Assembly: GCA_030651475.1 (NCBI GenBank)
Contig: JAUSEW010000018.1
Span: 1 to 49,022 of the forward strand
Length of the DNA: 49,022 nt
Source: Candidatus Levyibacteriota bacterium
GTDB taxonomy: Bacteria; Patescibacteriota; Microgenomatia; Levybacterales; UBA12049
Direction of reading: 5' to 3'
The translations under genes and the position numbers were made by a program. Positions 2,303 to 44,983 of this stretch are shown here, piece after piece. The notes beneath the pieces were generated by a model, which searched no databases, was not told the DNA's origin, and saw only the letters and a program-made list of their open reading frames with translations. Numbering within the stretch: the first letter of the stretch is position 1; the number at the start of each line of letters is the position of its first letter.

Positions 2303-3252
2303 AATGATTTTTCCTCCATTTCTTTTCTCGGCAAGAGTCCGTTTTGCGCTCCAATAATAGCCATTGTAGCCGAAGCATTTATCGTTCCCCATTTCATCGC
2401 TGTTTGTATTGGAAGATTTGAAAGCATTGCCGCTAAGAAACCGCTAGCGTAAGCATCTCCAGCTCCTGTTTTTTCAACAATTGCTGTTTTTATAATAGCT
2501 TGAGTAAGAAATTCTCCTTTTTCATTGACGGCGAACGATCCGTTTTCTCCGTCTGTTATTACTACGATTTTTGGTCCAAGCTTTTGTAATGAAATTAAAA
2601 GCTCATTATTTGATATTTGATTTTTAATGTTTAAGATTGTTATGGCCTCTTCTTTATTCACAAAGAGCATATCTGAAATAGCGAGTACGCTTTTTATTTT
2701 TTGGTAACCTGTGAGAAGCTGCAGTGTCCCGGGATTAAATGCAAGCTTAGAGCCCGAACTTTTTGCAAAAGCTTCGGTTAGTTCATATGTTTTCTCCCAT
2801 TCATTTCCCAAAGATGTAAGATAGATCCACTTAGTGGAAATCCCATCAAAAGAGAAATTGTGTTCTCGTTCAATGTGTTTACTGAAAATAGTTCTTTCTT
2901 GCTGGAAGCTTAAAATTACGGAAAATGACGATGGGCTATTGGCGTTTTGGAGTAAAAAATCCGTATTCACATTTTCTGACTGTAAACCATTAATAATTTT
3001 TTGAGAAAATTCATCTTTTCCTATTTCTGCCATAACAGCAGTTTTCATTTGAAGTTTTGCCAAGCCGACAGCGACATTATAAGCATTCCCTCCAAGCTGC
3101 AGGGAACATGCATCAACTGGAATTTTTTGACCATATGCAACACATAACTCCTTAGTATCTCTATTGAGATGGATATTGGGATTTTCCTCCAGAAGTGATA
3201 AAAAAATATCTATTTTTGCGTCGCCAATACAAATAACATCGAAGGACAACAT
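2299..3252 (-). CDS. PfkB/ribokinase-family carbohydrate kinase
   Basis: GGNAYNVAVGLAKL, FNPG, VNKEEA and EKTGAGDAYASGF; likely start MLSFDVICIGD at 3252. Confidence 0.9.
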   Translation of the reverse strand: MLSFDVICIGDAKIDIFLSLLEENPNIHLNRDTKELCVAYGQKIPVDACSLQLGGNAYNVAVGLAKLQMKTAVMAEIGKDEFSQKIINGLQSENVNTDFLLQNANSPSSFSVILSFQQERTIFSKHIEREHNFSFDGISTKWIYLTSLGNEWEKTYELTEAFAKSSGSKLAFNPGTLQLLTGYQKIKSVLAISDMLFVNKEEAITILNIKNQISNNELLISLQKLGPKIVVITDGENGSFAVNEKGEFLTQAIIKTAIVEKTGAGDAYASGFLAAMLSNLPIQTAMKWGTINASATMAIIGAQNGLLPRKEMEEKSL

Positions 3253-3824: not shown

Positions 3825-4105
3825 TGCTTCTTTCCAAAATCAAAGTAGTTGGTCATAGTATGGAGCCAACTCTGAAACAAAATAAAATAGTTATAGTGAG
3901 TTCGATTCCATATCTTTTTAAAAAACCAACAATTGGAGATATTGTGGTATTGAAGCGACAAAAGTATATAATAAAACGAATTACAGCAATAAAAAAGGAG
4001 CAAGTTTTTGTTATTGGCGATAACAAAAAAGAAAGCACAGACAGCAGAAATTTTGGTTGGATTAAGAAAGATAGTATTTTGGGAAAAGTTATTCATATTG
4101 GATAG
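3824..4105 (+). CDS. sodX: NiSOD maturation protease (S26 family)
   Basis: VVGHSMEPTL, IIKRI, GDN..STDSRNFG; TAATG coupling to sodN. Confidence 0.88.
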   Translation: MLLSKIKVVGHSMEPTLKQNKIVIVSSIPYLFKKPTIGDIVVLKRQKYIIKRITAIKKEQVFVIGDNKKESTDSRNFGWIKKDSILGKVIHIG

Positions 4106-4630: not shown

Positions 4631-5994
4631 TAGCATTTAAAAAAGTTAATCCTGTTTGCAACTCCTTCAGCTTGAACAGGTACGCTAAGTATTACCTTAC
4701 ACGCTTTATATATTTTTTCTTTGTTGAATATTCCATCCAAAATATCTTGTTTTACATTAGCTTCCGGATAATTTGCTCCGTGGGCAATGATAATAGTTTT
4801 ACTTGAAATGGCGTCATTTGTTAAAACTTCTTTATCGTATAGGCCTTTTGTAAAAAAATATTCATGAGCATCTCTAATATTATCTAGAGGAGGAGTGCGG
4901 GTTAATATGAGAAGAGCTGGAGTAATGTCGTTAACTCCGTAAAGAAATTTCGGTTTTTCTTTTTTAATGACAGCAATAATTTTATTTATATCATTAATTT
5001 TTTGTAAATTTCTATATGAAGAAATATATGTATAAAGATTAAGGGTAAGGAAAGTAAAAATAATAGTAGGTATTACGAGTTTTTGAATACGAAGCTTGTT
5101 CTTGGAAAATTCAAAAAATTCATACAAAGAAAGGCACAAAAAAGGAATTATGAAGTTAAGATATAAATAGTATACGTCTTGATAGTAAAGGAAAAAGGCA
5201 ATTCCCCAAAGAGAAACAGCGGCAAAAAATTTGTTTTTCTTAAAATTTAACAGATTAAAAATTAAAAGAACAAAGAAGACAAAATCTTTTGTTATGAAAA
5301 ACCATCCAACTTCTGTTTTTGAAATTCCGGCAGGACGCATAAGAGAAAAACCAAAAATATCGTTAAGGAATTGTTTTGGGGCAATAATTAAGGAGGGAAG
5401 AAGAACAATAATTAATGTTACGACAAAACCGATACTAAACTGCAATAATTTCTTCCAATTTCTATCTATTAAAAGTATAGTAAAAAAAGATAAAGGTATA
5501 GGAATAAAATATGCTTTGGTTAATAAGGAAAGAGCAATTAAGGCGCCAGAGATAAGAAATTTATTTTTTTTGAATAAGAAAAAACCTAATACTGCGAATA
5601 GAGAAGCGGTAAAAACGCCGGTCTGATGATCAGAAGTAGACAGAACCATAAAAGAAAAAAGATAAAGTAAGGAACTTATTGTAGAGATAAAATTATTTTT
5701 CGTGGAATGATAAGCCGTTAAATAGATCAGAAAAGCTACAGCTATGACTTCTATCGTGGGCGTGAGGTAAAAAAGATTGATATTGTCTCCAGTTATAAAA
5801 TAATAAAATGATGAAATATATCCAAATAGGGGGAAGTTGGAGAAAAATAAATCTTTGTATAATATTTTCCCGTGGATAATTTGGTATGCGATATTATAAT
5901 AAATATTAGTATCGGAAAGTCTTATTCCTAAATTTGTTACTTTTGCGGCAAAAAATATAAGAATAAAACTAAGAAGGGGAATAAAACGTATCAT
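4627..5994 (-). CDS. GT-C fold (ArnT/PMT-like) membrane glycosyltransferase
   Basis: Many TM helices, SDTNIY..LYKDLFFSNFP loop, conserved LLTK. Confidence 0.7.
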   Translation of the reverse strand: MIRFIPLLSFILIFFAAKVTNLGIRLSDTNIYYNIAYQIIHGKILYKDLFFSNFPLFGYISSFYYFITGDNINLFYLTPTIEVIAVAFLIYLTAYHSTKNNFISTISSLLYLFSFMVLSTSDHQTGVFTASLFAVLGFFLFKKNKFLISGALIALSLLTKAYFIPIPLSFFTILLIDRNWKKLLQFSIGFVVTLIIVLLPSLIIAPKQFLNDIFGFSLMRPAGISKTEVGWFFITKDFVFFVLLIFNLLNFKKNKFFAAVSLWGIAFFLYYQDVYYLYLNFIIPFLCLSLYEFFEFSKNKLRIQKLVIPTIIFTFLTLNLYTYISSYRNLQKINDINKIIAVIKKEKPKFLYGVNDITPALLILTRTPPLDNIRDAHEYFFTKGLYDKEVLTNDAISSKTIIIAHGANYPEANVKQDILDGIFNKEKIYKACKVILSVPVQAEGVANRINFFKCY

Positions 5995-6968
5995 TTTTTA
6001 ATTCTTAAAATAGCCCATCTAATCTTATCTAGCACTTTGTAGATTTCATAAATGAATGGATTAATAACTAGATCAAAACTTCCAATAAATTCGATAAGTT
6101 GTCCTCCATAACCTTCTTTGAAGCGATGGAATCCATACCATGGATCATTTTTATCTGGATTAGGTCCGAGCGCTCCCCACATATCAAATTTTTTTAAACC
6201 AAGCTTTTTCCCAAATTTAATAGCTTCCCACATCATTAGATTTGATGCCATAGTTTCTCTATGAAGACTGCTCGAAGCGCCATAAGGATAATAAAGAGTA
6301 TCGTTATAAACAAAAAGAATCCAGGCAGTTAATATCTGATTTTTATATTTTGCTAATAAAAGCCGTGCAGTTAATTTATCCGTATTCAATTTTTGATTTT
6401 TGATTTTTGATTTTTGATTTTTTAACGTTTCCCACATCAGCCTATGATAGTTTTCTGTGTGCGCATAGAAATTTTGACGTTTAGTTGTTTCTTTTGTAAG
6501 TTTTAGATATTCCTCAAAAGCTTTATCCAAATTATCTTCAATTATTTCAACGTTATGTTTTTGAGCTATCTTAATATTATATCGAGTTTTTGGATGCATT
6601 GATTTTAGTAAATCTTCTTCACTTTTTGTTAAATCCAAAACAAACGTATATTTGGTAAAAAGAGGATGAAAAGATGAACGCAGACCTAAATTTGAAATTT
6701 TAAATTTTAAATTTGAATTTTTTAATACATTTGGTTCAAGTTGGATAAAAATACATTTCTCTTTTTGTCCAATCTCGCGAAGTCTAACTATCATTTCTTT
6801 TGTTGGCATAGGACTTTTGGGTAGATATCCGACCGTCCAAGGAGTATGCGGAATTTTGTGGATTGTTAGCTGAAATCCATTTTCTCTTATAACTTTTAGT
6901 CCTGTTTTTTTTCTAAATTCGCCCCATTCCAAAGATTGCATGGGATAAATTGAATTATCGTTACTCAT
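5991..6968 (-). CDS. FemAB/FemX-family lipid II aminoacyltransferase
   Basis: QSLEWGEFRK, KTRYNIKIA, YYPYGAS, FDMWG and GFHRFKEGYGG. Confidence 0.88.
   Translation of the reverse strand: MSNDNSIYPMQSLEWGEFRKKTGLKVIRENGFQLTIHKIPHTPWTVGYLPKSPMPTKEMIVRLREIGQKEKCIFIQLEPNVLKNSNLKFKISNLGLRSSFHPLFTKYTFVLDLTKSEEDLLKSMHPKTRYNIKIAQKHNVEIIEDNLDKAFEEYLKLTKETTKRQNFYAHTENYHRLMWETLKNQKSKIKNQKLNTDKLTARLLLAKYKNQILTAWILFVYNDTLYYPYGASSSLHRETMASNLMMWEAIKFGKKLGLKKFDMWGALGPNPDKNDPWYGFHRFKEGYGGQLIEFIGSFDLVINPFIYEIYKVLDKIRWAILRIKK
6390..6417. repeat. Perfect heptamer tandem (TTTTTGA)x4 inside femAB
   Basis: Read directly; encodes NQKSKIKNQK. Confidence 0.9.
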
Positions 6969-8836
6969 AGATATTCTGGTAAATTTCTATCTAAATTTAC
7001 AGCATGTAAATTATTTGAGATTACTTTTTCCGGTAGTTCCAAGAGAAATCGGGATATTATATTGGATGTTCGTTGTCCAAAGAACATTCTGCGGGACGCA
7101 AAAGTTAAAAAGAGTTTCTCTTTAGCTCTTGTCATTCCCACGTAGCATAAGCGTCTTTCTTCCTCTAATTCATTTTTATCCATAAGGCTTCTTTGATGAG
7201 GGAATAATCCTTCTTCCATCCCAACCATAAAAACTATGGGAAACTCAAGTCCCTTAGCGGCATGAAGAGTCATTAAGGTTATCGCATCTTTTTTGCCGCC
7301 ATCTTTGGCAGGTTTGTCTGGCATATACTCTTGTTCGACTAAGGCAATATTTTCCAGAAACTCCGTAAGATTTGGAAAGGCAACTGCAACCGAACGAAGT
7401 TCTTTGATATTCTCCAGCCTTTCCTTCTCCTCTTCGTCGCTTTTATCATATAACGAAAGATAATCAGTTGCTTGTAATATTTTATCCAATATATCAAGAG
7501 TTATAATATTTTTCAGATCTTTTATCTTGTCTACCAATTCCAGGAACTTATTCATTCTTCCCTTGCCCAATTTACAAGTCCTTTTATATGAAACCATATC
7601 TTTTGGATTCTCCAAAAATCTAACATATGCCAGAATATCTTTTATCTCCTTTCTTTCATAAAATCTAGTACCGCCAACCAGAACATAAGGTATGCCTTGA
7701 TGTAGTAATACTTCCTCAATTACTCGGGATTGAGCATTAGTTCTATAAAAAATCGCTACATCAGTAAATTTCCAGCCAGAGGTTGGTCCGCCTTTGGCAG
7801 AAAAATTTGAGCTTTGATATTTAAGATTGTTGATTTCCCTAACTATAAATTCCGTTTCGTCCTGCTCATTCCTTGCTTCATAGATTATTATATTTTCTCC
7901 TTTTGGATTCTTGGTCCAAAGAGATAGGACAGGATGAGTAGTATTATGTGAGATAACCGAAGAAGCGGCATCCAAAATTTTCTGTGTAGAGCGATAATTT
8001 TGTGAAAGGGCAAATGTTTTTGCACCCTTGAAGTCCTCTTTGAATTTCGTAAGATTAGTAAAATCCGCACCCCGCCAGCTGTAAATGCTTTGGGAAAAAT
8101 CACCAACAACGCAAATATTTTTCCACTTAAGAGAAAGAGTCTTGGTTAAATAGTATTGCGCATGATTTGTATCTTGATATTCATCCACCATAATATATTG
8201 AAAGCGGTTCTGATATTTTTTAAGGATTTCCTCTTCTTTATTAAAAAGTTCTATGGTTTTTAATAAAAGGTCGTCGAAATCCAAAGCATTGTTCTCTTTG
8301 AGAAGTTCTTGGTATTTGATATAAACTTTGGCTGCTTGCTCCTGAAAATGTCCTCTTGCGTATCTGGGATACTCAAGTGAGGTTATTAATTCATTCTTTG
8401 CTTGGGAAATTGCGCCCAATATGGAAGAGGGTTTATAATCTTTGGTTGGAATATTTAGTTTCAGCATAGCTTCTTTGATGGCATCCAGCTGATCGGTAGT
8501 ATCGTATATAGCAAATTTTTCCGAAAGGCCAAGATATTTTCCTTCTATTCTAAGAATTCTGGCGCATAAGGAATGAAAGGTCGCGATTAATGGTTTTCCT
8601 TTCGTGATAAATTTTCCAATTCTTTCTTTCATTTCATTTGCCGCTTTATTGGTAAATGTCACCATTAATATATTGGAAGGATCGATATTTTTTTCTTGTA
8701 TTAAATAAACAACTTTATAAGTTAAAACTCTGGTTTTTCCTGATCCGGCGCCTGCAAGTATGACCATTGGACCGTCTGTTTGCAAAACCGCCTGCAGCTG
8801 TTCTGAATTTAGCTCCTTGAGAAAGTCTTTTTGCAT
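6965..8836 (-). CDS. pcrA: PcrA/UvrD SF1 DNA helicase
   Basis: AGAGSGKT, VDEYQDTN, QNYRS, TLHAAKGLEF and EERRLCYVGMTRA. Confidence 0.93.
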   Translation of the reverse strand: MQKDFLKELNSEQLQAVLQTDGPMVILAGAGSGKTRVLTYKVVYLIQEKNIDPSNILMVTFTNKAANEMKERIGKFITKGKPLIATFHSLCARILRIEGKYLGLSEKFAIYDTTDQLDAIKEAMLKLNIPTKDYKPSSILGAISQAKNELITSLEYPRYARGHFQEQAAKVYIKYQELLKENNALDFDDLLLKTIELFNKEEEILKKYQNRFQYIMVDEYQDTNHAQYYLTKTLSLKWKNICVVGDFSQSIYSWRGADFTNLTKFKEDFKGAKTFALSQNYRSTQKILDAASSVISHNTTHPVLSLWTKNPKGENIIIYEARNEQDETEFIVREINNLKYQSSNFSAKGGPTSGWKFTDVAIFYRTNAQSRVIEEVLLHQGIPYVLVGGTRFYERKEIKDILAYVRFLENPKDMVSYKRTCKLGKGRMNKFLELVDKIKDLKNIITLDILDKILQATDYLSLYDKSDEEEKERLENIKELRSVAVAFPNLTEFLENIALVEQEYMPDKPAKDGGKKDAITLMTLHAAKGLEFPIVFMVGMEEGLFPHQRSLMDKNELEEERRLCYVGMTRAKEKLFLTFASRRMFFGQRTSNIISRFLLELPEKVISNNLHAVNLDRNLPEYL

Positions 8837-37050: not shown

Positions 37051-38540
37051 AGCTTTTCGGTAACTTTATATTCAAGTCTTTTCCCAAGCATAAGTTGAGT
37101 ATGGGAAATAAGAGCTGGAATTACGGAAAGGAAAAAACTTACAACAGGCAAAAGTATGAACTCCAAAGGAAAAAGAAACTCTCTGATTTTGGGTAAGGAA
37201 TGATTCTTTGGCCTATTGCGAAAATCAATAGCAATCATTATGAGGAACGCGAACGTACAAAGAGTCAGTATAGATCCTGCCAAACTTGCAAGACTATATC
37301 CAAGAGTTGTCCTTTGGAAAACAGGGTTTACGAAAGCGATTATGTTGGCAGAAACTGTTAAGATGAACCAATTGACCGGCCAAAGGAAATGATCGAGTAA
37401 AACGTTGTAGAGAAGTATAGTTTTTCTGAAAAAGGGGACATTGGGAACAGTAAACCACCATTTTATAAACAGAGGGTCATCGGATACTCCCCAAGACCAT
37501 CGTCTTTCCTGTTGATACTTATTTTTTAAGCTTCTGATATAATTATAAGATAAGGGAGCATCCATAGAAGTTTTTAAGAAAATTGGCTCTACGAAGACTT
37601 GTCCTCTCAATTTATAGAAAGCTTTGAAGAAAATTCTGTAATCTTCAGGAATTACATCACAGTCCCAAAAATCGATTTTCTTAAGAAGAGAAAAAGACAA
37701 GGAATAAGTAGAATTAGCAATTAATCTATCTTTTTGGACAAGAACACCTGTTCTCCAGAGGCTGCCAAAAAATGCAATGATTCTAATTGGAGCAGGAACA
37801 TTCCAGAAATTATTGTAATTTACATTAGCTGATTGCCAAAATTTATTATATCGGTTAGTGTCGTTTAAAAATTTGAAAGCCAAATAGGAGAAATATTGCT
37901 TATCAAATATAGAATCAGCATCTACAGATGAAACAGTCGCAAAGTTTATATCAATAGGCCCATTCTCAATTAGCTTTTTGTAAACAATACGGCCTGCAAA
38001 TGCCTCATTTGAAGATTTTCCTTTTACTTCGTTTGGAACATCAGGATGATATGTCGCAAAAATTTGTCCAAAATTTACTTTAAATTCATCAATAAGAGTA
38101 TTTGCTTTTATTATTGCATCTTCTTCTCTTTTTTCCATAGCTAGAACTACAATAATTTTCCTTTTTGGGAAGGTTTGTGATGCAATAGCCTTGAGTGTTT
38201 GACGCAATTTACTTACGGTCTCTTTGTAGTTTGGAATAATTATAACATGGTAAACTCGATTCCAGTTTTTTAATGTTTTTGTTCTTTCCAACCAATCTAT
38301 GCCTTCAGCTTCTCTTATTTTTCTAGAGGCGATAAATGCTGTTGCTGATAGGGAAAAAGATTTATACAGCCAATAAATATCAAAAAATACGATAAAATAG
38401 GCAACGATGTAGGGTATAATTAAAGATCCCCAAACAGGAAATAGAATAAGCGCCCAAGAAACAAAACCGGGAAGTAATTCCAAAGACCTTTTGGTTTTGA
38501 TTGGATATCTGCTAAAAACAGTCTGAAAAAAGTTTGTCAT
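37047..38540 (-). CDS. Membrane GT2-family glycosyltransferase
   Basis: IIPNYKE, GKSSN, DADS, PED and QERRW motifs. Confidence 0.82.
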   Translation of the reverse strand: MTNFFQTVFSRYPIKTKRSLELLPGFVSWALILFPVWGSLIIPYIVAYFIVFFDIYWLYKSFSLSATAFIASRKIREAEGIDWLERTKTLKNWNRVYHVIIIPNYKETVSKLRQTLKAIASQTFPKRKIIVVLAMEKREEDAIIKANTLIDEFKVNFGQIFATYHPDVPNEVKGKSSNEAFAGRIVYKKLIENGPIDINFATVSSVDADSIFDKQYFSYLAFKFLNDTNRYNKFWQSANVNYNNFWNVPAPIRIIAFFGSLWRTGVLVQKDRLIANSTYSLSFSLLKKIDFWDCDVIPEDYRIFFKAFYKLRGQVFVEPIFLKTSMDAPLSYNYIRSLKNKYQQERRWSWGVSDDPLFIKWWFTVPNVPFFRKTILLYNVLLDHFLWPVNWFILTVSANIIAFVNPVFQRTTLGYSLASLAGSILTLCTFAFLIMIAIDFRNRPKNHSLPKIREFLFPLEFILLPVVSFFLSVIPALISHTQLMLGKRLEYKVTEKL

Positions 38541-39331
38541 AGGTTAAAAATAACACTGGCGTTTCTCGTAGTTTGATCTTCAACTAAAGAAAAAGAAACA
38601 CCTTTTATTTCGGCAATTTTTGCTGCCACAATTATAGCATAAGAAGGTATGTTTAGGCTACTTCGGTGAGGCTCCGGGGTAAGGAAAGGACTGTCTGTTT
38701 CAACTACGATTCTATTTATGGGGGCATAGCTTACTAAATCTTTTAACTCCGTATTCTCTCCTGGCGCAAAACCTTGATATGTAATATTGCCGTCGAAACC
38801 AACATAAAATCCAAAATTAAGCACTTGTTTTAAAAAGTCGATATCTCCTGACATACAGTGGAACATTCCAGGAGGATTTAAAAGATATGATTTATGGCTC
38901 AAAAGTATCTCCAAAATATCTTTTCCCGCATGGCGATTATGAATTTGCAGGGGTAATTTCAGCTTGAAAGCAAGTTCTACCTGGGCAATAAATACTTCCT
39001 TTTGCAATTTTTTATCAACTATGCTGTTGGATTTATAACTGTAGTAATCCATCCCACATTCGCCAATTCCGACAACTTTTGGATTTTTTGTAATTTTTTC
39101 TAAGTCTTTAAGCCAGTTATCTTCCAGTTTGTCGGCATGGTGCGGGTGGACGCCAACGATTGCATATAAATTGTCATATTTTTGAGCCAGTTCTACTGCT
39201 TTTTGGCTCGAATCTATTTTCGTTCCGACATTTATAATCTTTTCTACGCCGGCTTTTTTTGCTTTTTTAATGACTTCGCCATAGTTTTTTTCGAACGAAT
39301 GAAAATTAAGATGGCAATGTACATCTATCAT
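38537..39331 (-). CDS. tatD: TatD-family nuclease
   Basis: DVHCHL, GVHPH, IGECGMDY, HNR and ETDSPFL. Confidence 0.92.
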   Translation of the reverse strand: MIDVHCHLNFHSFEKNYGEVIKKAKKAGVEKIINVGTKIDSSQKAVELAQKYDNLYAIVGVHPHHADKLEDNWLKDLEKITKNPKVVGIGECGMDYYSYKSNSIVDKKLQKEVFIAQVELAFKLKLPLQIHNRHAGKDILEILLSHKSYLLNPPGMFHCMSGDIDFLKQVLNFGFYVGFDGNITYQGFAPGENTELKDLVSYAPINRIVVETDSPFLTPEPHRSSLNIPSYAIIVAAKIAEIKGVSFSLVEDQTTRNASVIFNL

Positions 39332-39427: not shown

Positions 39428-42082
39428 ATGAAGGTAAACTTCTTCTTAACAAGATATATTGACAAATTGTCTTCTTCTATTTTTAAAATATCCGTAAGTA
39501 GCGTTAAGCCCAAAATAAATACCACGTCGCAGCTATTTGAAGATGCTTATAGAAATATAAATGAATTATTTCTAGAATTGCACACGTCTACAGAAGGTTT
39601 AATAAACGGACAAGGCAGAAAATTGCTGAAACAGTATGGATTAAATGAGGTAGCGCATGAGAAAAGAAAGCTTTGGCCGATACGTCTTCTAGCCACTTTT
39701 AATAATCCATTAGTTTTTCTTCTCTTATTTTTGGCAATAATATCTTTGATTACAAAAGATATCAAGACAGCGGGCATTATATTAATAATGGTTCTTTTAA
39801 GTGTGTTAATAAGATTTTTCGAAGAGAATCAGGCCTATAATGCTGCGGAAAGTTTAAGGTCTATGGTAAGAACAACGTGTACGGTAATAAGAAAAGGTAA
39901 GCCTAAAGAGATTGATCTTAAGCTAGTTGTCCCCGGAGATATAGTTAGGCTTTCGGCAGGGGATCTTGTTCCTGCAGACGTAAGGATGATTCAGAGTAAA
40001 GATTTATTCGTTAATCAATCATTGTTAACAGGAGAATCTTTGCCTGTTGAGAAGCATGCAGTTTTGCCCAAAGAAAAAGAACAGGATAATATATTTGAAT
40101 TACAAAATATGTGTTTTATGGGTACCAATGTTGAGAGCGGAGTAGCAACAGCCCTTGTTTTGCATACAGGGCGGAATACTTATTTTGGAAGCCTAGCGCA
40201 AAGCATAGTTGGACAGAGAAGTCTTACGAGTTTCGACAAAGGAATAGACCAATTTACATGGCTTATGATCAGATTTATGTTGGTTATGGCTCCGATTGTA
40301 TTTCTTATTAATGGATTGGGTAAAGGCAATTGGTGGGAAGCATTACTTTTCGCAATATCTGTTGCTGTCGGTTTAACTCCAGAAATGCTTCCGGCAATAG
40401 TAACAGTTAATCTTGCGAAAGGCGCAATTGCCATGGCAAAGAAAAAAGTTATAGTAAAAAGATTAAGCGCAATCCAAAACTTTGGAGCTATGAATATTCT
40501 TTGTACGGATAAAACAGGTACCCTTACACAGAATAGAATAGTTTTAATAAAAAACATCAATATTAGCGGAGAAACGGATTACAATATTTTACACCACGCA
40601 TATGTTAATAGTTTTTATCAAACAGGTTTCAAGAATATTTTGGACGAGGCGGTAATTAAGTACACGAAATCAAAAAATCTAAATTCCATAGGGAATACGT
40701 ATGAAAAGATAGACGAGTTGCCTTTTGATTTCATAAGAAGACGCCTTTCGGTTATCGTTAAAGACCAGAATGGCAAAAGGTTTTTAATCTGTAAGGGTGC
40801 AGTTGAGGAAGTTATGAGCATTTGCGAAAGATACGAATTGCATAAAACGCTTTATAAATTATCAGATGAAAATCGTAAGAAAATAAAATCTATGAATGAA
40901 GAATTTAGTCTTGATGGATTTAGAGTCATAGCTGTTTCCTATAAAGAAATAGATAGCAATCGTAAGCATTATAGTAAAGAAGATGAGGAAGACCTGACGT
41001 TTTTAGGCTTTATGACATTTTTCGATCCGCCAAAAGAAACAGCAGCTGCAGCGATTGCCAAGCTTCAGTCGCACGGAATAACAATAAAGGTCTTAACTGG
41101 GGATAATGAGCTTGTAACCAGAAAAATTTGCAGCGAAGTAGGATTGCAAGTTCAAAATTCCTTACTGGGACCGAAAATTGACAATATGACAGATAAGGAA
41201 TTGGAAGATGTTGTGGATGAAACTACAATTTTTGCCAAACTTTCCCCAGACGACAAAAAGAGAGTAATTAAAGCTTTACAGCGGAGAAAACATGCTGTTG
41301 GATTTTTAGGGGACGGGGTAAATGATGCGCCGGCCTTAAGGACAGCGGATGTTGGGATATCTGTAGATACGGCAGTTGATATCAGCAAAGAATCAGCCGA
41401 TATTATTCTTCTCGAAATGAGCTTAATGGTTCTTTCCGATGGCGTTATAGAAGGCAGAAAGGTTTTTGGTAACATTATCAAATATATTAAGATGGGAGCT
41501 AGTTCTAGCTTTGGAAATATGTTTAGCGTGATTGGAGCTAGTATATTTTTGCCGTTTTTGCCGATGATTCCGCTCCAGCTTCTGACTAATAATTTGCTTT
41601 ATGATTTTTCTCAAACTGCAATACCAACAGATAATGTTGACAAAGAGTACTTAGACAAGCCAAGAAAATGGGAGATAGCAGACATCAGGAGATTTATGAT
41701 ATTTATTGGTCCTATAAGCTCTATTTTTGATTACGTAACATTTGCTATAATGCTTGTCTTGTTTCACGCATGGAACAATCCTTCTTTATTTCAAACAGGT
41801 TGGTTTGTGGAATCGCTTCTTACGCAGGTTCTTATTGTCCATGTAATTAGAAGCAGAAAAATTCCGTTCATACAAACGTTGGCAAGCAAATCTTTAATTG
41901 CCACAACTGTTATTATTATGGCAATAGGAATTTCGCTCACGTTATTACCTGTGGGTCGTTTGTTTAGTTTCGTAAGATTGCCATTATTGTACTGGCCGTT
42001 ATTAGCATTAATTTTACTTTGTTATATTACGCTTACCCAGATAGTGAAGACTTGGTATATCAAAAAATTCGGCTATAATTAA
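39428..42082 (+). CDS. mgtA: Magnesium-translocating P-type ATPase
   Basis: TGES, AVGLTPEMLP, CTDKTGTLT, GDGVND, SSFGNMFS and FQTGWFVES. Confidence 0.92.
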   Translation: MKVNFFLTRYIDKLSSSIFKISVSSVKPKINTTSQLFEDAYRNINELFLELHTSTEGLINGQGRKLLKQYGLNEVAHEKRKLWPIRLLATFNNPLVFLLLFLAIISLITKDIKTAGIILIMVLLSVLIRFFEENQAYNAAESLRSMVRTTCTVIRKGKPKEIDLKLVVPGDIVRLSAGDLVPADVRMIQSKDLFVNQSLLTGESLPVEKHAVLPKEKEQDNIFELQNMCFMGTNVESGVATALVLHTGRNTYFGSLAQSIVGQRSLTSFDKGIDQFTWLMIRFMLVMAPIVFLINGLGKGNWWEALLFAISVAVGLTPEMLPAIVTVNLAKGAIAMAKKKVIVKRLSAIQNFGAMNILCTDKTGTLTQNRIVLIKNINISGETDYNILHHAYVNSFYQTGFKNILDEAVIKYTKSKNLNSIGNTYEKIDELPFDFIRRRLSVIVKDQNGKRFLICKGAVEEVMSICERYELHKTLYKLSDENRKKIKSMNEEFSLDGFRVIAVSYKEIDSNRKHYSKEDEEDLTFLGFMTFFDPPKETAAAAIAKLQSHGITIKVLTGDNELVTRKICSEVGLQVQNSLLGPKIDNMTDKELEDVVDETTIFAKLSPDDKKRVIKALQRRKHAVGFLGDGVNDAPALRTADVGISVDTAVDISKESADIILLEMSLMVLSDGVIEGRKVFGNIIKYIKMGASSSFGNMFSVIGASIFLPFLPMIPLQLLTNNLLYDFSQTAIPTDNVDKEYLDKPRKWEIADIRRFMIFIGPISSIFDYVTFAIMLVLFHAWNNPSLFQTGWFVESLLTQVLIVHVIRSRKIPFIQTLASKSLIATTVIIMAIGISLTLLPVGRLFSFVRLPLLYWPLLALILLCYITLTQIVKTWYIKKFGYN

Positions 42083-42084
42083 TC

Positions 42085-42276
42085 CTATTTTTCCGAAACT
42101 GCCGCATACAAATGTCCCAATAGACTTAATCCAATCAGGCCTAATCCCCAGCGTAAAGGATGAATGCCCACTATCGGGCTTGCTATCAGAACGCCTATTC
42201 CTATGCCTCCGACTGCATGAACGAAGGAATTGTACGTGACGTGTTTCTTAAAATAGTTTGTTATTTTTTTATACAT
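42085..42276 (-). CDS. Small two-TM membrane protein
   Basis: 63 aa, hydrophobic; strong SD AGGAGGTG at 42288-42281. Confidence 0.7.
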   Translation of the reverse strand: MYKKITNYFKKHVTYNSFVHAVGGIGIGVLIASPIVGIHPLRWGLGLIGLSLLGHLYAAVSEK

Positions 42277-42313
42277 TTTTCACCTCCTTCTAATATCAGG
42301 ATATCACAAGTAA

Positions 42314-42360
42314 AGGTTAAATTCTTGGAAATAGGGGTTTTTGGGAGGTGATTTTGGGAC
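42314..42360 (-). repeat. Orphan copy of the metG 3' end
   Basis: 43/47 identical to 43544-43590; reads PKITSQKPLFPRI*. Confidence 0.9.
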
Positions 42361-42385
42361 AGTAGAATTTGCTCTGATCTTAAAT

Positions 42386-42411
42386 ACTTCAATGATTTAA
42401 ATCATTGAAGT
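42386..42411. promoter_or_regulatory. Perfect 26-bp palindrome downstream of the TrpR-like gene
   Basis: ACTTCAATGATTT|AAATCATTGAAGT. Confidence 0.75.
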
Positions 42412-42863
42412 CAGAATGCCTTTTTATTTTTTTCTCTATGCTTATCAACTTCTTGTTTTAAGTAACGCCAAACTGTTCCGCCTTTTCTTGCTTTAGTTGG
42501 AAAAGATAGGACTTTTGAAACTGATTCGTCTATCATATCAATTAACTTTTCTTCCTTGAGAATTTTATTAAGAAGATTTCTGTATCCCTCGCTTCCGTAT
42601 CGAATTGCCATATTCACGGATGTAATAGTAGGAGCGCTTACTCTAATAATTTTTTGAATAGTTCGGTAGTCATAATCTTTTTGCAGAAGGAGTGCTATTG
42701 TGAGTCTTTTTGCTAGCATAATTTTTTCTGTAGGCGTTAGGAGATCAGAGATAAATTGATCTGCTTCTCCTTGAGTATGAATCTTAACTAAGCTTTTTAG
42801 AAAGATTTCAAAAATTCGATCAGCAATCTCTTTTGAAATAGGGTACTTGGAAACTTGCGTCAT
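42411..42863 (-). CDS. TrpR/YerC-like HTH protein
   Basis: FISDLLTPTEKIMLAKRL..LL..YRTIQKIIRVSAPTITSV. Confidence 0.82.
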   Translation of the reverse strand: MTQVSKYPISKEIADRIFEIFLKSLVKIHTQGEADQFISDLLTPTEKIMLAKRLTIALLLQKDYDYRTIQKIIRVSAPTITSVNMAIRYGSEGYRNLLNKILKEEKLIDMIDESVSKVLSFPTKARKGGTVWRYLKQEVDKHREKNKKAF

Positions 42864-42869
42864 ACAATA

Positions 42870-42916
42870 CTTTAATGATTTAAATCATTAAAGCAGATAT
42901 GCTTGTATTTTGTCAA
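42870..42916 (-). promoter_or_regulatory. Promoter with a 24-bp palindromic operator over the -10
   Basis: TTGACA (42916-42911), 18 bp, TTTAAT inside CTTTAATGATTT|AAATCATTAAAG (42870-93). Confidence 0.7.
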
Positions 42917-42938
42917 TAAGCATTTCTTTAATGGGAAA

Positions 42939-42976
42939 TTATATCTTGGAAAAAGAAGGATTTGGAAAGAAATTTT
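42939..42976 (-). repeat. Second, more decayed copy of the metG 3' end
   Basis: TTATATCTTGGAAAAAGAAGGATTTGGAAAGAAATTTT; reads KISFQILLFPR, with a 1-bp deletion before the stop. Confidence 0.55.
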
Positions 42977-43043
42977 ATTCACGCTCAACCCCAGGGGTCG
43001 AAAACCAATATACAGTTAAGCAAAATAAAAGAAATCCTATAGT

Positions 43044-43072
43044 TTGACTTGAAGGTTTTATTACAGTATAAT
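43044..43072 (+). promoter_or_regulatory. Near-consensus promoter, leaderless configuration
   Basis: TTGACT, 17 bp, TATAAT; ATG 7 nt downstream. Confidence 0.7.
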
Positions 43073-43079
43073 TCCTCTT

Positions 43080-43550
43080 ATGAATTTGAAAGAAAGATGG
43101 GGAGTTTTAACAGAAGTCAAAACAGCTCCTGTGCCAAAGTTAACTCCAGAATTAATGATAAAGATTAATGCAGTCTACGAGAAACTTTCTTCTAGGAAAG
43201 GATTTCCTACTAACTACTGTGGTCCAGCTATGCAGGAATTAAGAAGGTTGGGATTTCAAGGTATTAGAGGATTTTTCCAAGTTGGTAGATCTGGGGATTT
43301 AGATTTACTTCTGGATCATTCTCATGATTGGGCAGAGGATGCAGGTGGGAAAATTATAGACCTTACAGCAGCACAATATAATAGAGAGAAGTCCTTAGGA
43401 GCAGTTATACCATCTGGAGTTTTGATAATAGATAAAGAGAACCCTTTATATGAAAGATACATAATACTCGAAAGACTTCCAACGAGACCTTTATTCCCTA
43501 CGCCAAAGGACGTATTCTCAAAATGGAAAGTAGTTTTGCTAGGAGGTTAA
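43080..43550 (+). CDS. Hypothetical protein with possible Cys-His-Asp (transglutaminase/papain-like) triad
   Basis: NYCG...HSHDWAE...IIDLTAAQY; has its own promoter. Confidence 0.6.
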   Translation: MNLKERWGVLTEVKTAPVPKLTPELMIKINAVYEKLSSRKGFPTNYCGPAMQELRRLGFQGIRGFFQVGRSGDLDLLLDHSHDWAEDAGGKIIDLTAAQYNREKSLGAVIPSGVLIIDKENPLYERYIILERLPTRPLFPTPKDVFSKWKVVLLGG

Positions 43551-44983
43551 ATTCTCGGAAAAAGGGGGTTTTGGGAGGTGATTTTTGGACCTTTAAATTG
43601 TTCTTCGATTTTTTCTGCGGTTTCGGGTAAAAATGGTTCGAGAAGCACTGCAATTTCCTGAATTTGATCAACTGCATGGGAAAGTATAGTTTTTAATTTT
43701 GGAGAATTTTGTTTTGCCAATTCCCAAGGCTTTTCGTTGTTGATATAGCGGTCAAGTTCTGTAATTTTGGTCCACACGAAAGAAAGAGCATCATTAAGAC
43801 GGTACTGCGAAAAGCTTTCAGAATATTCTTCAACAGAAATTAAGTGGCTTGAGGTTTTACCTGCTCCTTCCATCTGGCGGTAATTTGAAGTTTCACAAAG
43901 TTTTGCAACGCGGGAAATTAAATTTCCCAGTCCATTTGCCAGATCGGCATTATAAGCTTGCTTAAGTTTTTCTTCCGAAATATCACTATCGTTTGTAAGA
44001 TTGGTATATCTTAAAAGATAATATCGTACTGCATCTGCTCCATATTTTTTAACCCAATCGGTTGGCCTAATAATATTTCCCAATGATTTGCTAATTTTTC
44101 GTCCGTTAAGATTTAAAAATCCATTTACAAGAATTGTTTTTGGTAGTTTGATATTTGCAGATTTTAGCATCGCAGGCCACAAGAGAGCATGCCATCTCAA
44201 ATTGTCTTTTCCTAAAATATGTACATCTGCAGGCCAAAATTTCTCAAACAATTTTTTATTTTCCAGAAATCCTACGCCTGTTAAATAGTTTGTTAAAGCA
44301 TCAAACCAAACGTACATAACTTGTTTTGTTTCATTGGGAATCGGAACTCCCCAGGTAAAGTTAGATCTTGAAATTGGAATATCTTTTATATTTTTGGCAA
44401 ACTCTAACATTTCGTTTGCTCGGTGTTGGGGAAAAATAAAATCCGGGTTATTCTTAATGTGCTTAATTAGAAAATCTTTGTATTTGGACCATTTGAAGAA
44501 ATAATTTTCTTCAGTTATTTTTTTAATTTCTAGGTTTGGGTGAAAAGAGCATTTGCCATTTTTTAAATCCGAATCATCACAATAAGCTTCGCATCCTTCG
44601 CAATAAAGACCGCTATATTCGCCAAGATAAATATCTCCATTTTCATCAACTCTTTTCCAAATTTCTTGAGCAACTTTGGCGTGATCTTCATCTGTAGTTT
44701 CTATAAATCTGTCATAAGAAATATTTACAGAATCTTGTTGTTCTTTATCAGTTGCGGCAATTTTTCTTACGAACTCCAAGGGAGATATGCCGGATGCTTT
44801 TGCAGCTTTTTCTGCTTTTTGTCCATATTCATCAGTACCGGTAAGAAAGAAAACGTTATCTTTGCCAAGCAGTATGCGATTGTATCTGGCCAAAACATCC
44901 GCAGCTATTTTTTGGAAAGCATGGCCAATATGAATAGTATCGTTAACGTAGTCGATGGCTGTTGTGATGTAAAATTTATTCAT
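43547..44983 (-). CDS. metG: Methionyl-tRNA synthetase (short form)
   Basis: HIGH, TGTDEYGQK, YCEGCE, YVWFDAL, KISKS and LFPRI. Confidence 0.96.
   Translation of the reverse strand: MNKFYITTAIDYVNDTIHIGHAFQKIAADVLARYNRILLGKDNVFFLTGTDEYGQKAEKAAKASGISPLEFVRKIAATDKEQQDSVNISYDRFIETTDEDHAKVAQEIWKRVDENGDIYLGEYSGLYCEGCEAYCDDSDLKNGKCSFHPNLEIKKITEENYFFKWSKYKDFLIKHIKNNPDFIFPQHRANEMLEFAKNIKDIPISRSNFTWGVPIPNETKQVMYVWFDALTNYLTGVGFLENKKLFEKFWPADVHILGKDNLRWHALLWPAMLKSANIKLPKTILVNGFLNLNGRKISKSLGNIIRPTDWVKKYGADAVRYYLLRYTNLTNDSDISEEKLKQAYNADLANGLGNLISRVAKLCETSNYRQMEGAGKTSSHLISVEEYSESFSQYRLNDALSFVWTKITELDRYINNEKPWELAKQNSPKLKTILSHAVDQIQEIAVLLEPFLPETAEKIEEQFKGPKITSQNPLFPRI

Follow-up and report, generated by a model that had tools for sequence, protein, structure and literature searches.

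The 49,022-nt stretch of Candidatus Levyibacteriota DNA analysed here (the window) is the whole of contig C4 of genome G000, a 910,733-bp assembly in 36 contigs with 37% G+C that is rated 96% complete. The subject of this analysis is the 3' end of its methionyl-tRNA synthetase gene (metG), which occurs three times in the same orientation and at near-equal spacing (621 and 609 nt), once as the working end of the gene (copy C) and twice downstream of it as relics, one decayed (copy M) and one intact but untranslated (copy A). Our analysis found all three copies to be genuine, and they are very probably the scars of insertions that brought allelic gene ends with them. Read along the minus strand, the locus consists of metG, the convergent orf156, copy M, trpR, copy A, orf63, a convergent gene of 884 aa and tatD. 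The gene and the three copies of its end are as follows.

43547-44983, minus strand: metG, methionyl-tRNA synthetase, 478 aa, intact (Pfam tRNA-synt_1g, E 1.5e-99)
43544-43590, minus strand: copy C, working metG 3' end, GPKITSQNPLFPRI and stop (repeat search, codon comparison)
42939-42976, minus strand: copy M, decayed metG-end relic, KISFQILLFPRY, one base missing and stop lost (repeat search, in-frame reading, alignments)
42314-42360, minus strand: copy A, intact untranslated metG-end relic, CPKITSQKPLFPRI and stop (genome blastn, codon comparison)

Three genuine copies of the metG 3' end

A repeat search aligned positions 42314-42369 with 43544-43599 (56 nt, 86% identity), and blastn of the metG end against the whole genome returned only the end itself and positions 42314-42360 (47 nt, 4 mismatches, E 1.3e-11). 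A first-pass annotation of this DNA had described copy A as identical to the working end at 43/47 positions, with all four differences at third codon positions and three of them synonymous, and this was confirmed in full: CCA/CCC, CTT/CTA and CCG/CCA are silent and AAC/AAA changes N to K.

The decayed middle copy that was proposed at the same time matches the working end at 25 of 33 positions (42944-42976), and among 1,819,162 positions on both strands only copies C, A and M reach at least 23/33. The outcome varies with the length compared: as a 47-mer M gives 27/47, and 8 positions genome-wide reach at least 28. Its local alignment score of 26 is attained by 13 of 1554 genome tiles. Taken alone, copy M is only moderately significant, significance being a condition that the first-pass annotation had set for this copy. 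Read in frame, it gives KISFQILLFPRY against KITSQNPLFPRI and stop for the working end. Genome G001 of the same genus carries an intact in-frame copy (NKIIFQKPLFPRI and stop) beside the same hairpin block that flanks M, and in L038 and L039, which belong to other genera, the true metG end occupies exactly the place of M relative to the trpR promoter, whose -35 box M precedes by 22 nt in the window. Additionally, a contig from a related strain (run X3) differs from M at positions 42957, 42966, 42970 and 42971, each time towards C, and these are four of the eight positions at which M departs from C. Because of the in-frame reading, the intact G001 copy, the collinearity with L038 and L039 and the direction of the X3 differences, copy M is considered real.

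Logan contigs from the probable source run reproduced positions 41800-42414 and 42402-44100 with 0 differences at depths of 156 and 155, breaking only at a 25-nt palindrome; these contigs possibly derive from the window's own sample and are not independent support. The contigs contained no empty-site or circle joint of the window's own strain, contigs being unable to show rare variants, and the joints that were found came from relatives at 85-90% likeness or had short sides of 21-41 nt. In run X2 the depth was ~3, and the lack of cover over 42185-42877 there is no sign that trpR is absent. A co-occurring relative in run X1 (~88% identical over 42402-43000, depth 21.6) possesses trpR, an M-like relic and the hairpin block, followed only 18 nt beyond the block by a metG-end-like stretch, with orf156 seemingly missing.

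Allelic gene ends at other loci of the genome

The genome scan for other duplicated gene termini, suggested as a check by the first-pass annotation, compared the last 36 nt of 804 open reading frames (ORFs) with their own 5-kb downstream regions and was accompanied by a self-BLAST of the genome. Ten genes reached at least 25/36 in comparison to one in the control, and after inspection the following nine loci were counted as bearing a relic of their own gene end that is in frame and has its stop codon aligned.

metG
SpoU methylase gene (two relics)
galT-like gene
gene at C21:21052-22779
tsaD-like gene
gene at C6:18215-18673
guaA
gene at C10:5304-5774
gene at C23:4064-4414

A terminal match at C18:39307-39861 was read as tandem adenylate-kinase-like paralogues rather than a relic and was left out, as were C6:47250, C27:2307 and C19:12717, which had no aligned stop, and the unclear C21:32194.

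Differences between true end and relic, counted over eight loci, fell 15/12/57 at codon positions 1/2/3. Because a duplicate that decayed neutrally would show no such preference for third positions, the relics are read as allelic ends that once worked in other lineages, in agreement with the allelic metG termini claimed at first pass. This codon pattern indicates that the copies are allelic and not local duplications, and that both spent most of their divergence as working gene ends. The relics range from about 24 to 99 nt in length, and two of them enclose no gene (85 nt behind the tsaD-like gene and 98 nt behind C21:21052-22779). No site common to the nine genes and no motif common to the repeats of metG, SpoU, galT and guaA was seen by eye, no formal motif search having been made.

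Two of these loci and one further duplication are described individually. The SpoU locus (C11:1790-5747) is a second three-copy locus like metG, in which the last 27-30 codons of the gene at 5649-6182 (minus strand) recur at 3141-3228 and 1790-1877, in frame and with mostly synonymous differences, and separate a three-gene block of unknowns from one unknown of 286 aa. At C21:6290-7110 the end of the galT-like gene (7032-7925, minus strand) recurs 736 nt downstream as 43 nt at 98% identity followed by a diverged tail and stop. A single response-regulator receiver gene (119 aa) stands between the copies, and a 68-aa HTH_17/MerR-type gene just beyond them. At C9:39512-40847 the 5' end of a comM/yifB-like gene (16 codons plus upstream bases) is duplicated over 70 nt at 91% identity across a 385-aa Fic-domain gene, a 5'-end mirror image of the 3'-end relics.

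The metG-tatD interval and its inserted units

The closest relatives of the G000 proteins are found in Patescibacteria (Microgenomates) assemblies labelled Levybacteria, Shapirobacteria, Woesebacteria and others, and metG orthologues were present in 41/41 genomes searched (G000 included). Comparison of tatD-metG intervals across relatives, also proposed at first pass, showed that the interval varies: within family f1 the gap is -3 to 127 nt in 11 genomes, and nine genomes, G000 among them, hold 0.5-4.3 kb of unrelated genes there. Named from their translations only, the inserted genes of relatives include a methyltransferase-like gene with a HicAB-like pair, NUDIX-like, carbamoyltransferase-like and Ddl-like genes and others. 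Metagenome searches yielded 74 loci with a metG end, 64 of them with at least 450 nt downstream, many showing direct metG-tatD adjacency and others inserts of 0.2-1.9 kb. The metG-tatD slot is a long-standing variable site. Among the 37 loci listed in the interval survey, extra metG ends were confined to genus g1: G000 has two and G001 one, and G002 retains a deleted remnant.

The remaining features of the locus in the window are as follows.

43080-43550, plus strand: orf156, orphan 156-aa protein gene (family-less in Pfam, PHROGs, PADLOC and NCBIfam)
43044-43072, plus strand: promoter-like site of orf156, TTGACT-17-TATAAT (11/12 consensus matches)
42977-43006, no strand: hairpin block resembling repetitive extragenic palindromic (REP) elements, core CAACCCCAGGGGTCG, adjoining copy M (same junction in G001 and G002)
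42911-42916, minus strand: trpR -35 box, TTGACA (invariant in G000, L038 and L039 by alignment)
42869-42893, no strand: palindrome CTTTAATGATTTAAATCATTAAAG, downstream of the -35 box and upstream of the trpR start (unchanged in sequence and position in L038 and L039)
42411-42863, minus strand: trpR, YerC/YecD-family TrpR-related regulator, 150 aa (Pfam PF01371, E 7e-16; NCBIfam TIGR02531)
42387-42411, no strand: second palindrome CTTCAATGATTTAAATCATTGAAG, at the stop codon of trpR (likewise unchanged in sequence and position in L038 and L039)
42085-42276, minus strand: orf63, 63-aa membrane-protein gene preceded by AAGGAGGTG (92% in G001, 84% in G002)
39428-42082, plus strand: 884-aa gene between tatD and orf63 (92.5% identical in G001)
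38537-39331, minus strand: tatD, usual immediate downstream neighbour of metG in the family (Pfam TatD_DNase, E 1.3e-76)

The stop codon of metG in copy C overlaps that of the convergent orf156, copy A lies 38 nt upstream of orf63, and each inter-copy interval holds one gene with its own promoter, as had been noted earlier. The 884-aa gene, a putative MgtA-like P-type ATPase gene as judged by reading its translation without a family scan, occurred downstream of metG only in genus g1 among the loci examined.

The trpR protein scored 46.1 bits against NCBIfam TIGR02531 (YerC/YecD; cut-off 42.2), and its gene is flanked by two near-identical palindromes of 24-26 nt. Its closest relatives, 85% identical, are encoded directly downstream of metG and on the same strand in L038 and L039, where trpR is followed by a 391-aa gene and then tatD. 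Both genomes keep the invariant TTGACA and the two palindromes with the same one-base difference between them (at approximate locus coordinates 1727-1750 and 2196-2219 in L038, and 3983-4006 and 4455-4478 in L039), and the second palindrome also precedes the promoter of the 391-aa gene there. Because both recur with trpR in L038 and L039, they are assigned to the trpR unit, and most likely they act as operators and not as recombination sites; the two resemble an autoregulatory operator pair. No second metG end was seen at the L038 and L039 loci. By this synteny the trpR unit appears to be an ordinary, old chromosomal neighbour of metG, with which its earlier portrayal as a captured cassette in a simple series fits poorly. 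The metG gene of L039 (2467-3906) is only 46% identical in protein, yet its last 48 nt are 80% identical to those of the window in a locus that is otherwise syntenic (hrcA 73%, tatD 73% and trpR 85% identical). Either a distant homologue has taken the place of the gene body here, or the C-terminal tail is strongly conserved.

The orf156 protein had no match in Pfam, PHROGs, PADLOC or NCBIfam, and none of the three small proteins of the locus matched PHROGs or PADLOC. Only two homologues of orf156 were returned by a search of 5.8 billion proteins, and a 40% identical counterpart occupies the same place in G002. Residues C47, H82 and D87 are invariant in 4/4 sequences, and the fold may be papain-like (transglutaminase or NlpC-P60-like; atlas TM 0.58, below the family-naming bar of the tool), which provides a weak lead. 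The block around the orf156 promoter is 78% identical over 73 nt in G002.

The hairpin block adjoins M, the distal copy of G001 and the relic of G002. It was considered as a common cassette end and rejected, as it was not found at other relic loci. Further genomic copies of the hairpin lie at C6:104466, C6:104679, C6:73877, C18:13661 and C3:6241, the first two directly behind a Y1_Tnp gene (C6:104107-104448) of the REP-associated tyrosine transposase (RAYT)/IS200-like type, as REP elements do. A second repeat, a perfect palindrome of ~36 nt, GACAACn(5-10)GCGATCGCn(5-10)GTTGTC with centre GCGATCGC, has seven copies, four of which sit at boundaries of duplicated gene ends, either at the true end (C21:6950 and C21:21013) or at the relic (C6:19378 and C11:1895). 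The remaining three (C11:12170, C11:12815 and C11:16387), all on C11, have no relic beside them.

Hybrid relic and mosaic metG genes in the genus

G001 possesses a single relic between the hairpin block and orf63. By eye on the alignment, its 5' part differs from M at 2/17 positions and from A at 5/17, and its 3' part differs from A at 2/23 and from M at ~9/23; its flank on the block side is shared with M and that on the orf63 side with A. Copies A and M are therefore reciprocal hybrids relative to the single G001 copy, and a crossover took place inside a relic copy and not only at the working gene end. On this comparison the trpR unit would have been either inserted into, or deleted from, a relic by crossover within the copy. 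Because the metG bodies of G000, G001 and G002 are almost equally far from one another (85-87% identity), parsimony does not decide between insertion in G000 and deletion in G001 and G002.

The metG genes themselves are mosaic. DNA identity between G000 and G002 is 86% for the gene body, falls to 51% for the 3' domain behind alignment position ~1100 and is 76% for the final 48 nt, in comparison to 87%, 84% and 82% for G000 and G001. The divergent 3' domain of G002 (locus L006; alignment ~1110-1440) is at most 58% identical to any other sampled relative and was replaced from an unsampled lineage. This mosaic structure indicates that exchange with a crossover inside metG has occurred in the genus. 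A break in identity between G000 and G001 just upstream of copy C would mark the last crossover; none is clear, the values being 81-85% up to the end and 76% over the final 45 nt.

Proposed origin of the locus

No recombinase was found in the window, where the first-pass annotation had noted the lack of an integrase, and the genome scan for tyrosine recombinases that it called for returned two PF00589 matches in G000, on contigs C6 and C9. Both had XerD/XerC models as best matches, below the curated cut-offs, and both are types common across relatives, one match of 133-160 bits being present in 38/41 genomes. In none of the 41 genomes did the 50 kb on either side of metG contain a PF00589 match, as far as the contig reached (it is short in several), no recombinase was seen among the ORFs listed for the metG-tatD inserts at 10 related loci, where no family scan was run, and G000 had 0 matches to Resolvase, rve or the TnpB-type PF07282. 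Two Y1 (HUH) transposase genes and the genes for ComEC, DprA and RecA are present in G000, and an Rfam scan of the window gave nothing at or above a gathering score. The larger Xer-like gene is bracketed by a GC-rich repeat of 95 nt (85%; C6:91093-91187 and C6:95568-95661), one copy of which lies in frame inside folD; it belongs to a repeat family and is not an att site.

The three copies would be junction scars of at least two recombination events that stacked alternative downstream-of-metG neighbourhoods. Donors would have been related Levybacteria-type (Patescibacteria) genomes, each segment bringing its own last 40-47 nt of metG; one copy would become the working end, and displaced copies would stay downstream as untranslated relics. 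Copy C with orf156 and the hairpin block would form a first layer (as in G002), copy M with the trpR unit a second (as in L038 and L039), and copy A with orf63, the 884-aa gene and tatD a third (as in G001 and G002). Joining may have been performed by general host machinery that recombined within the short gene-end homology after DNA uptake, with no dedicated integrase, either through one crossover of a segment that had been circularised or looped out or by one homologous and one illegitimate end, and the copies may remain recombinogenic, as the hybrid relic of G001 suggests. In E. coli, a circular molecule with part of a gene end is reported to duplicate that end by a single crossover (PMC3240628). 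The homology-driven reading is favoured because many genes are targeted, no dedicated recombinase is visible and metG is mosaic. We infer which enzyme acted, how the events followed one another and how the DNA entered, and the homology-driven, integrase-free mechanism by itself is given slightly less than an even chance; the statement as a whole, stacked allelic neighbourhoods and mechanism included, is held to be evenly balanced.

Several observations weigh against this interpretation. RecA-type recombination favours longer homology than these relics offer, their shortness putatively reflecting survivorship, as long similar repeats delete the insert, or the need to keep the upstream region of the next gene. 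The 5' boundaries of the relics nearly coincide at metG (42-45 nt before the stop in A, and 39 nt in M and the G001 copy), and the starts of the two SpoU relics lie no more than ~3 nt apart, which is what a fixed att site would give. Classical homology-facilitated illegitimate recombination (HFIR), as described in PMC3240628, couples insertion with deletion and not duplication. No credible extra metG end was found in any of the 74 metagenome loci, including 25 with an interval of at least 0.5 kb, or in any of the seven further family genomes with such an interval (counted where tatD was found, some of these being the same contigs), at an identity threshold of 28-29/45 that would miss copies as decayed as M and with a peptide-motif scan on part of the sets only. 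Because these relatives bear inserts without an extra metG end, the relic-leaving process is not the sole route into the slot. Lastly, a recombinase encoded on the unassembled part of the genome, or supplied by a phage, is possible.

The main rival explanation is that the units are decayed integrative elements resembling cis-mobilizable elements (CIMEs) or microCIMEs, in which an attP mimicking the metG 3' end recombined with an attB in metG, the integrase was lost or acted in trans, and the copies represent attL and attR. Such elements are classically recognised by short direct repeats of a gene 3' end through which the gene is restored, the coinciding relic boundaries at metG and SpoU fit them, the gene-free relics of 85 and 98 nt resemble microCIMEs, and the hybrid copy of G001 could have arisen by recombination between att sites. 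However, no integrase, relaxase or excisionase was found in the window, relaxase families not having been searched specifically, the only tyrosine recombinases of G000 are the Xer-like pair, and neither the surroundings of metG in 41 genomes nor the inserts of 10 related loci revealed another. About nine target genes would demand several specificities, and in L038 and L039 the trpR unit simply belongs to the normal gene order around metG. No locus with a relative of trpR or orf156 was retrieved from a viral contig collection, one stretch passing tblastn for trpR only. We regard this rival as a real but minor possibility; if an integrase was responsible, the locus would instead add a further phylum and further target genes to the known range of CIME-like accretion.

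It is improbable that the HUH (Y1, RAYT/IS200-like) transposases mobilised the units through hairpin repeats at relic boundaries. The REP-like hairpin abuts M, the distal copy of G001 and the relic of G002, similar hairpins stand directly behind a Y1_Tnp gene, four of the seven GCGATCGC palindromes lie at duplicated-gene-end boundaries, and the co-occurring relative of run X1 has only 18 nt and the hairpin between a metG end and M. Against this, only one hairpin accompanies the orf156 unit, no GC-rich hairpin of either kind is found beside the trpR unit, whose AT-rich palindromes are its own, and other hairpin copies lie away from relic loci. HUH transposases are also not known to duplicate 40-90 nt of their target or to take a gene end along.

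An active integron-like platform at metG that captures single-gene cassettes by a dedicated system is very improbable, even though serial copies, one gene per interval and an interval that varies among relatives are what it would produce. There is no integrase, no attC-like fold and no gene without a promoter of its own, the order of decay ignores position, extra copies are restricted to G000 and G001 (plus the deleted G002 relic), and scars at unrelated genes speak against a platform specific to metG. On these grounds the integron-like accretion hotspot of the first-pass annotation is disfavoured, and of the repeated capture of small cassettes that it envisaged, the insertions with allelic ends stand and the simple serial order fits poorly, as the farthest copy A is the best preserved and M the most decayed. 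Local duplication (target-site duplication, replication slippage or an assembly artefact) has next to nothing in its favour beyond same-orientation repeats at near-equal spacing, and is opposed by the third-position bias, by orthologous copies in a second genome and by the identical, though perhaps same-sample, Logan contigs.

To our knowledge, how Patescibacteria (candidate phyla radiation, CPR) with their tiny genomes gain accessory genes is poorly understood. The pattern described here, in which conserved genes receive foreign segments within their final few dozen bases, each segment bringing its own gene end and leaving the old one behind, may report a general, recombinase-independent mode of gene gain, as no dedicated recombinase is visible and genes for uptake and RecA are present. 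Displaced gene ends with third-position differences are also a possible marker with which to find and date insertions in metagenome-assembled genomes. A wider proposal, which we consider speculative and rather unlikely, is that ultra-small Patescibacteria gain genes through integrase-free 'handle-and-cargo' units. The allelic last 25-100 nt of a conserved gene would travel with the cargo and target the end of that gene in related genomes, host homologous recombination would restore the gene, and the displaced predecessor would serve as a further landing or excision site. If true, this would be a genome-wide functional analogue of the integron without an integrase, with about nine sites in a 0.91-Mb genome.

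Comparison with known systems

In streptococci, CIMEs (1.2-13 kb) and microCIMEs without genes (130-220 bp) are stacked at the 3' ends of rpmG, rpsI, fda and rplL (PMC7563491). The metG locus resembles the elements described there in that direct repeats of a gene 3' end flank small cargo without a recombination gene, units occur in tandem, the target remains intact and gene-free micro-units exist. It differs in that CIMEs, according to PMC7563491, derive from integrative and conjugative or integrative and mobilizable elements, occur in tandem with integrase-bearing elements and move by conjugation. At metG no integrase, relaxase or coupling protein was found (the relaxase families again not being searched), and the trpR unit is an old neighbour.

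The tycheposon arrays of Prochlorococcus (bioRxiv 10.1101/2020.12.28.424599) also belong to a streamlined genome in which repeated integration at one site displaces older units and leaves partial target copies. Tycheposons, however, enter tRNA genes and bring complete or fragmentary tyrosine recombinases with them, whereas at metG the end of a protein-coding gene is the target and no piece of a recombinase was seen.

Campbell-type integration and HFIR (PMC3240628) share with our locus an integration without a dedicated recombinase, in which a circular molecule duplicates part of a gene end by one crossover, whereas the duplications reported in that paper measure 109-950 bp in comparison to about 24-99 nt here. 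The insert at metG is flanked by homologous direct repeats that are donor/recipient hybrids (A and M against the G001 copy), a Campbell-type feature, and a homologous crossover inside the anchor gene, a feature of HFIR, is present in the fall from 86% to 51% between the G000 and G002 metG genes. HFIR also leaves a microhomology of 3-10 bp at its illegitimate joint together with a coupled deletion; the joints in question at metG would be 42360/42361 and 42976/42977. We know of no description of either process as a genome-wide source of stacked allelic gene ends.

Integrons are arrays of single-gene units separated by a repeated site, in which mostly promoterless cassettes lie under a common promoter. 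The metG locus likewise has single-gene units parted by a repeated site. It differs in possessing no IntI, attI, folded attC or common promoter, and its repeat is the end of the neighbouring essential gene. The three copies, folded on both strands, showed no attC-like structure (minimum free energy -0.75 to -3.5 kcal/mol, z-scores 0.18 to 1.21), and orf156 and trpR lie on opposite strands with their own promoters. Xer-dependent elements, such as integrative mobile elements exploiting Xer recombination (IMEX) and pdif modules, are flanked by dif-like 28-mers common to all modules; the repeated sequences at metG, SpoU, galT and guaA differ by locus.

In summary, the metG locus resembles the accretion of integrative elements at a gene 3' end and lacks both the recombinase traits of those elements and every integron trait that was tested. 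A limited literature search, which does not prove that none is in print, returned no description of such relics in CPR bacteria. What appears to be new is the presence, in a CPR genome, of stacked allelic gene-end relics around one-gene inserts, at about nine loci and with no dedicated recombinase.

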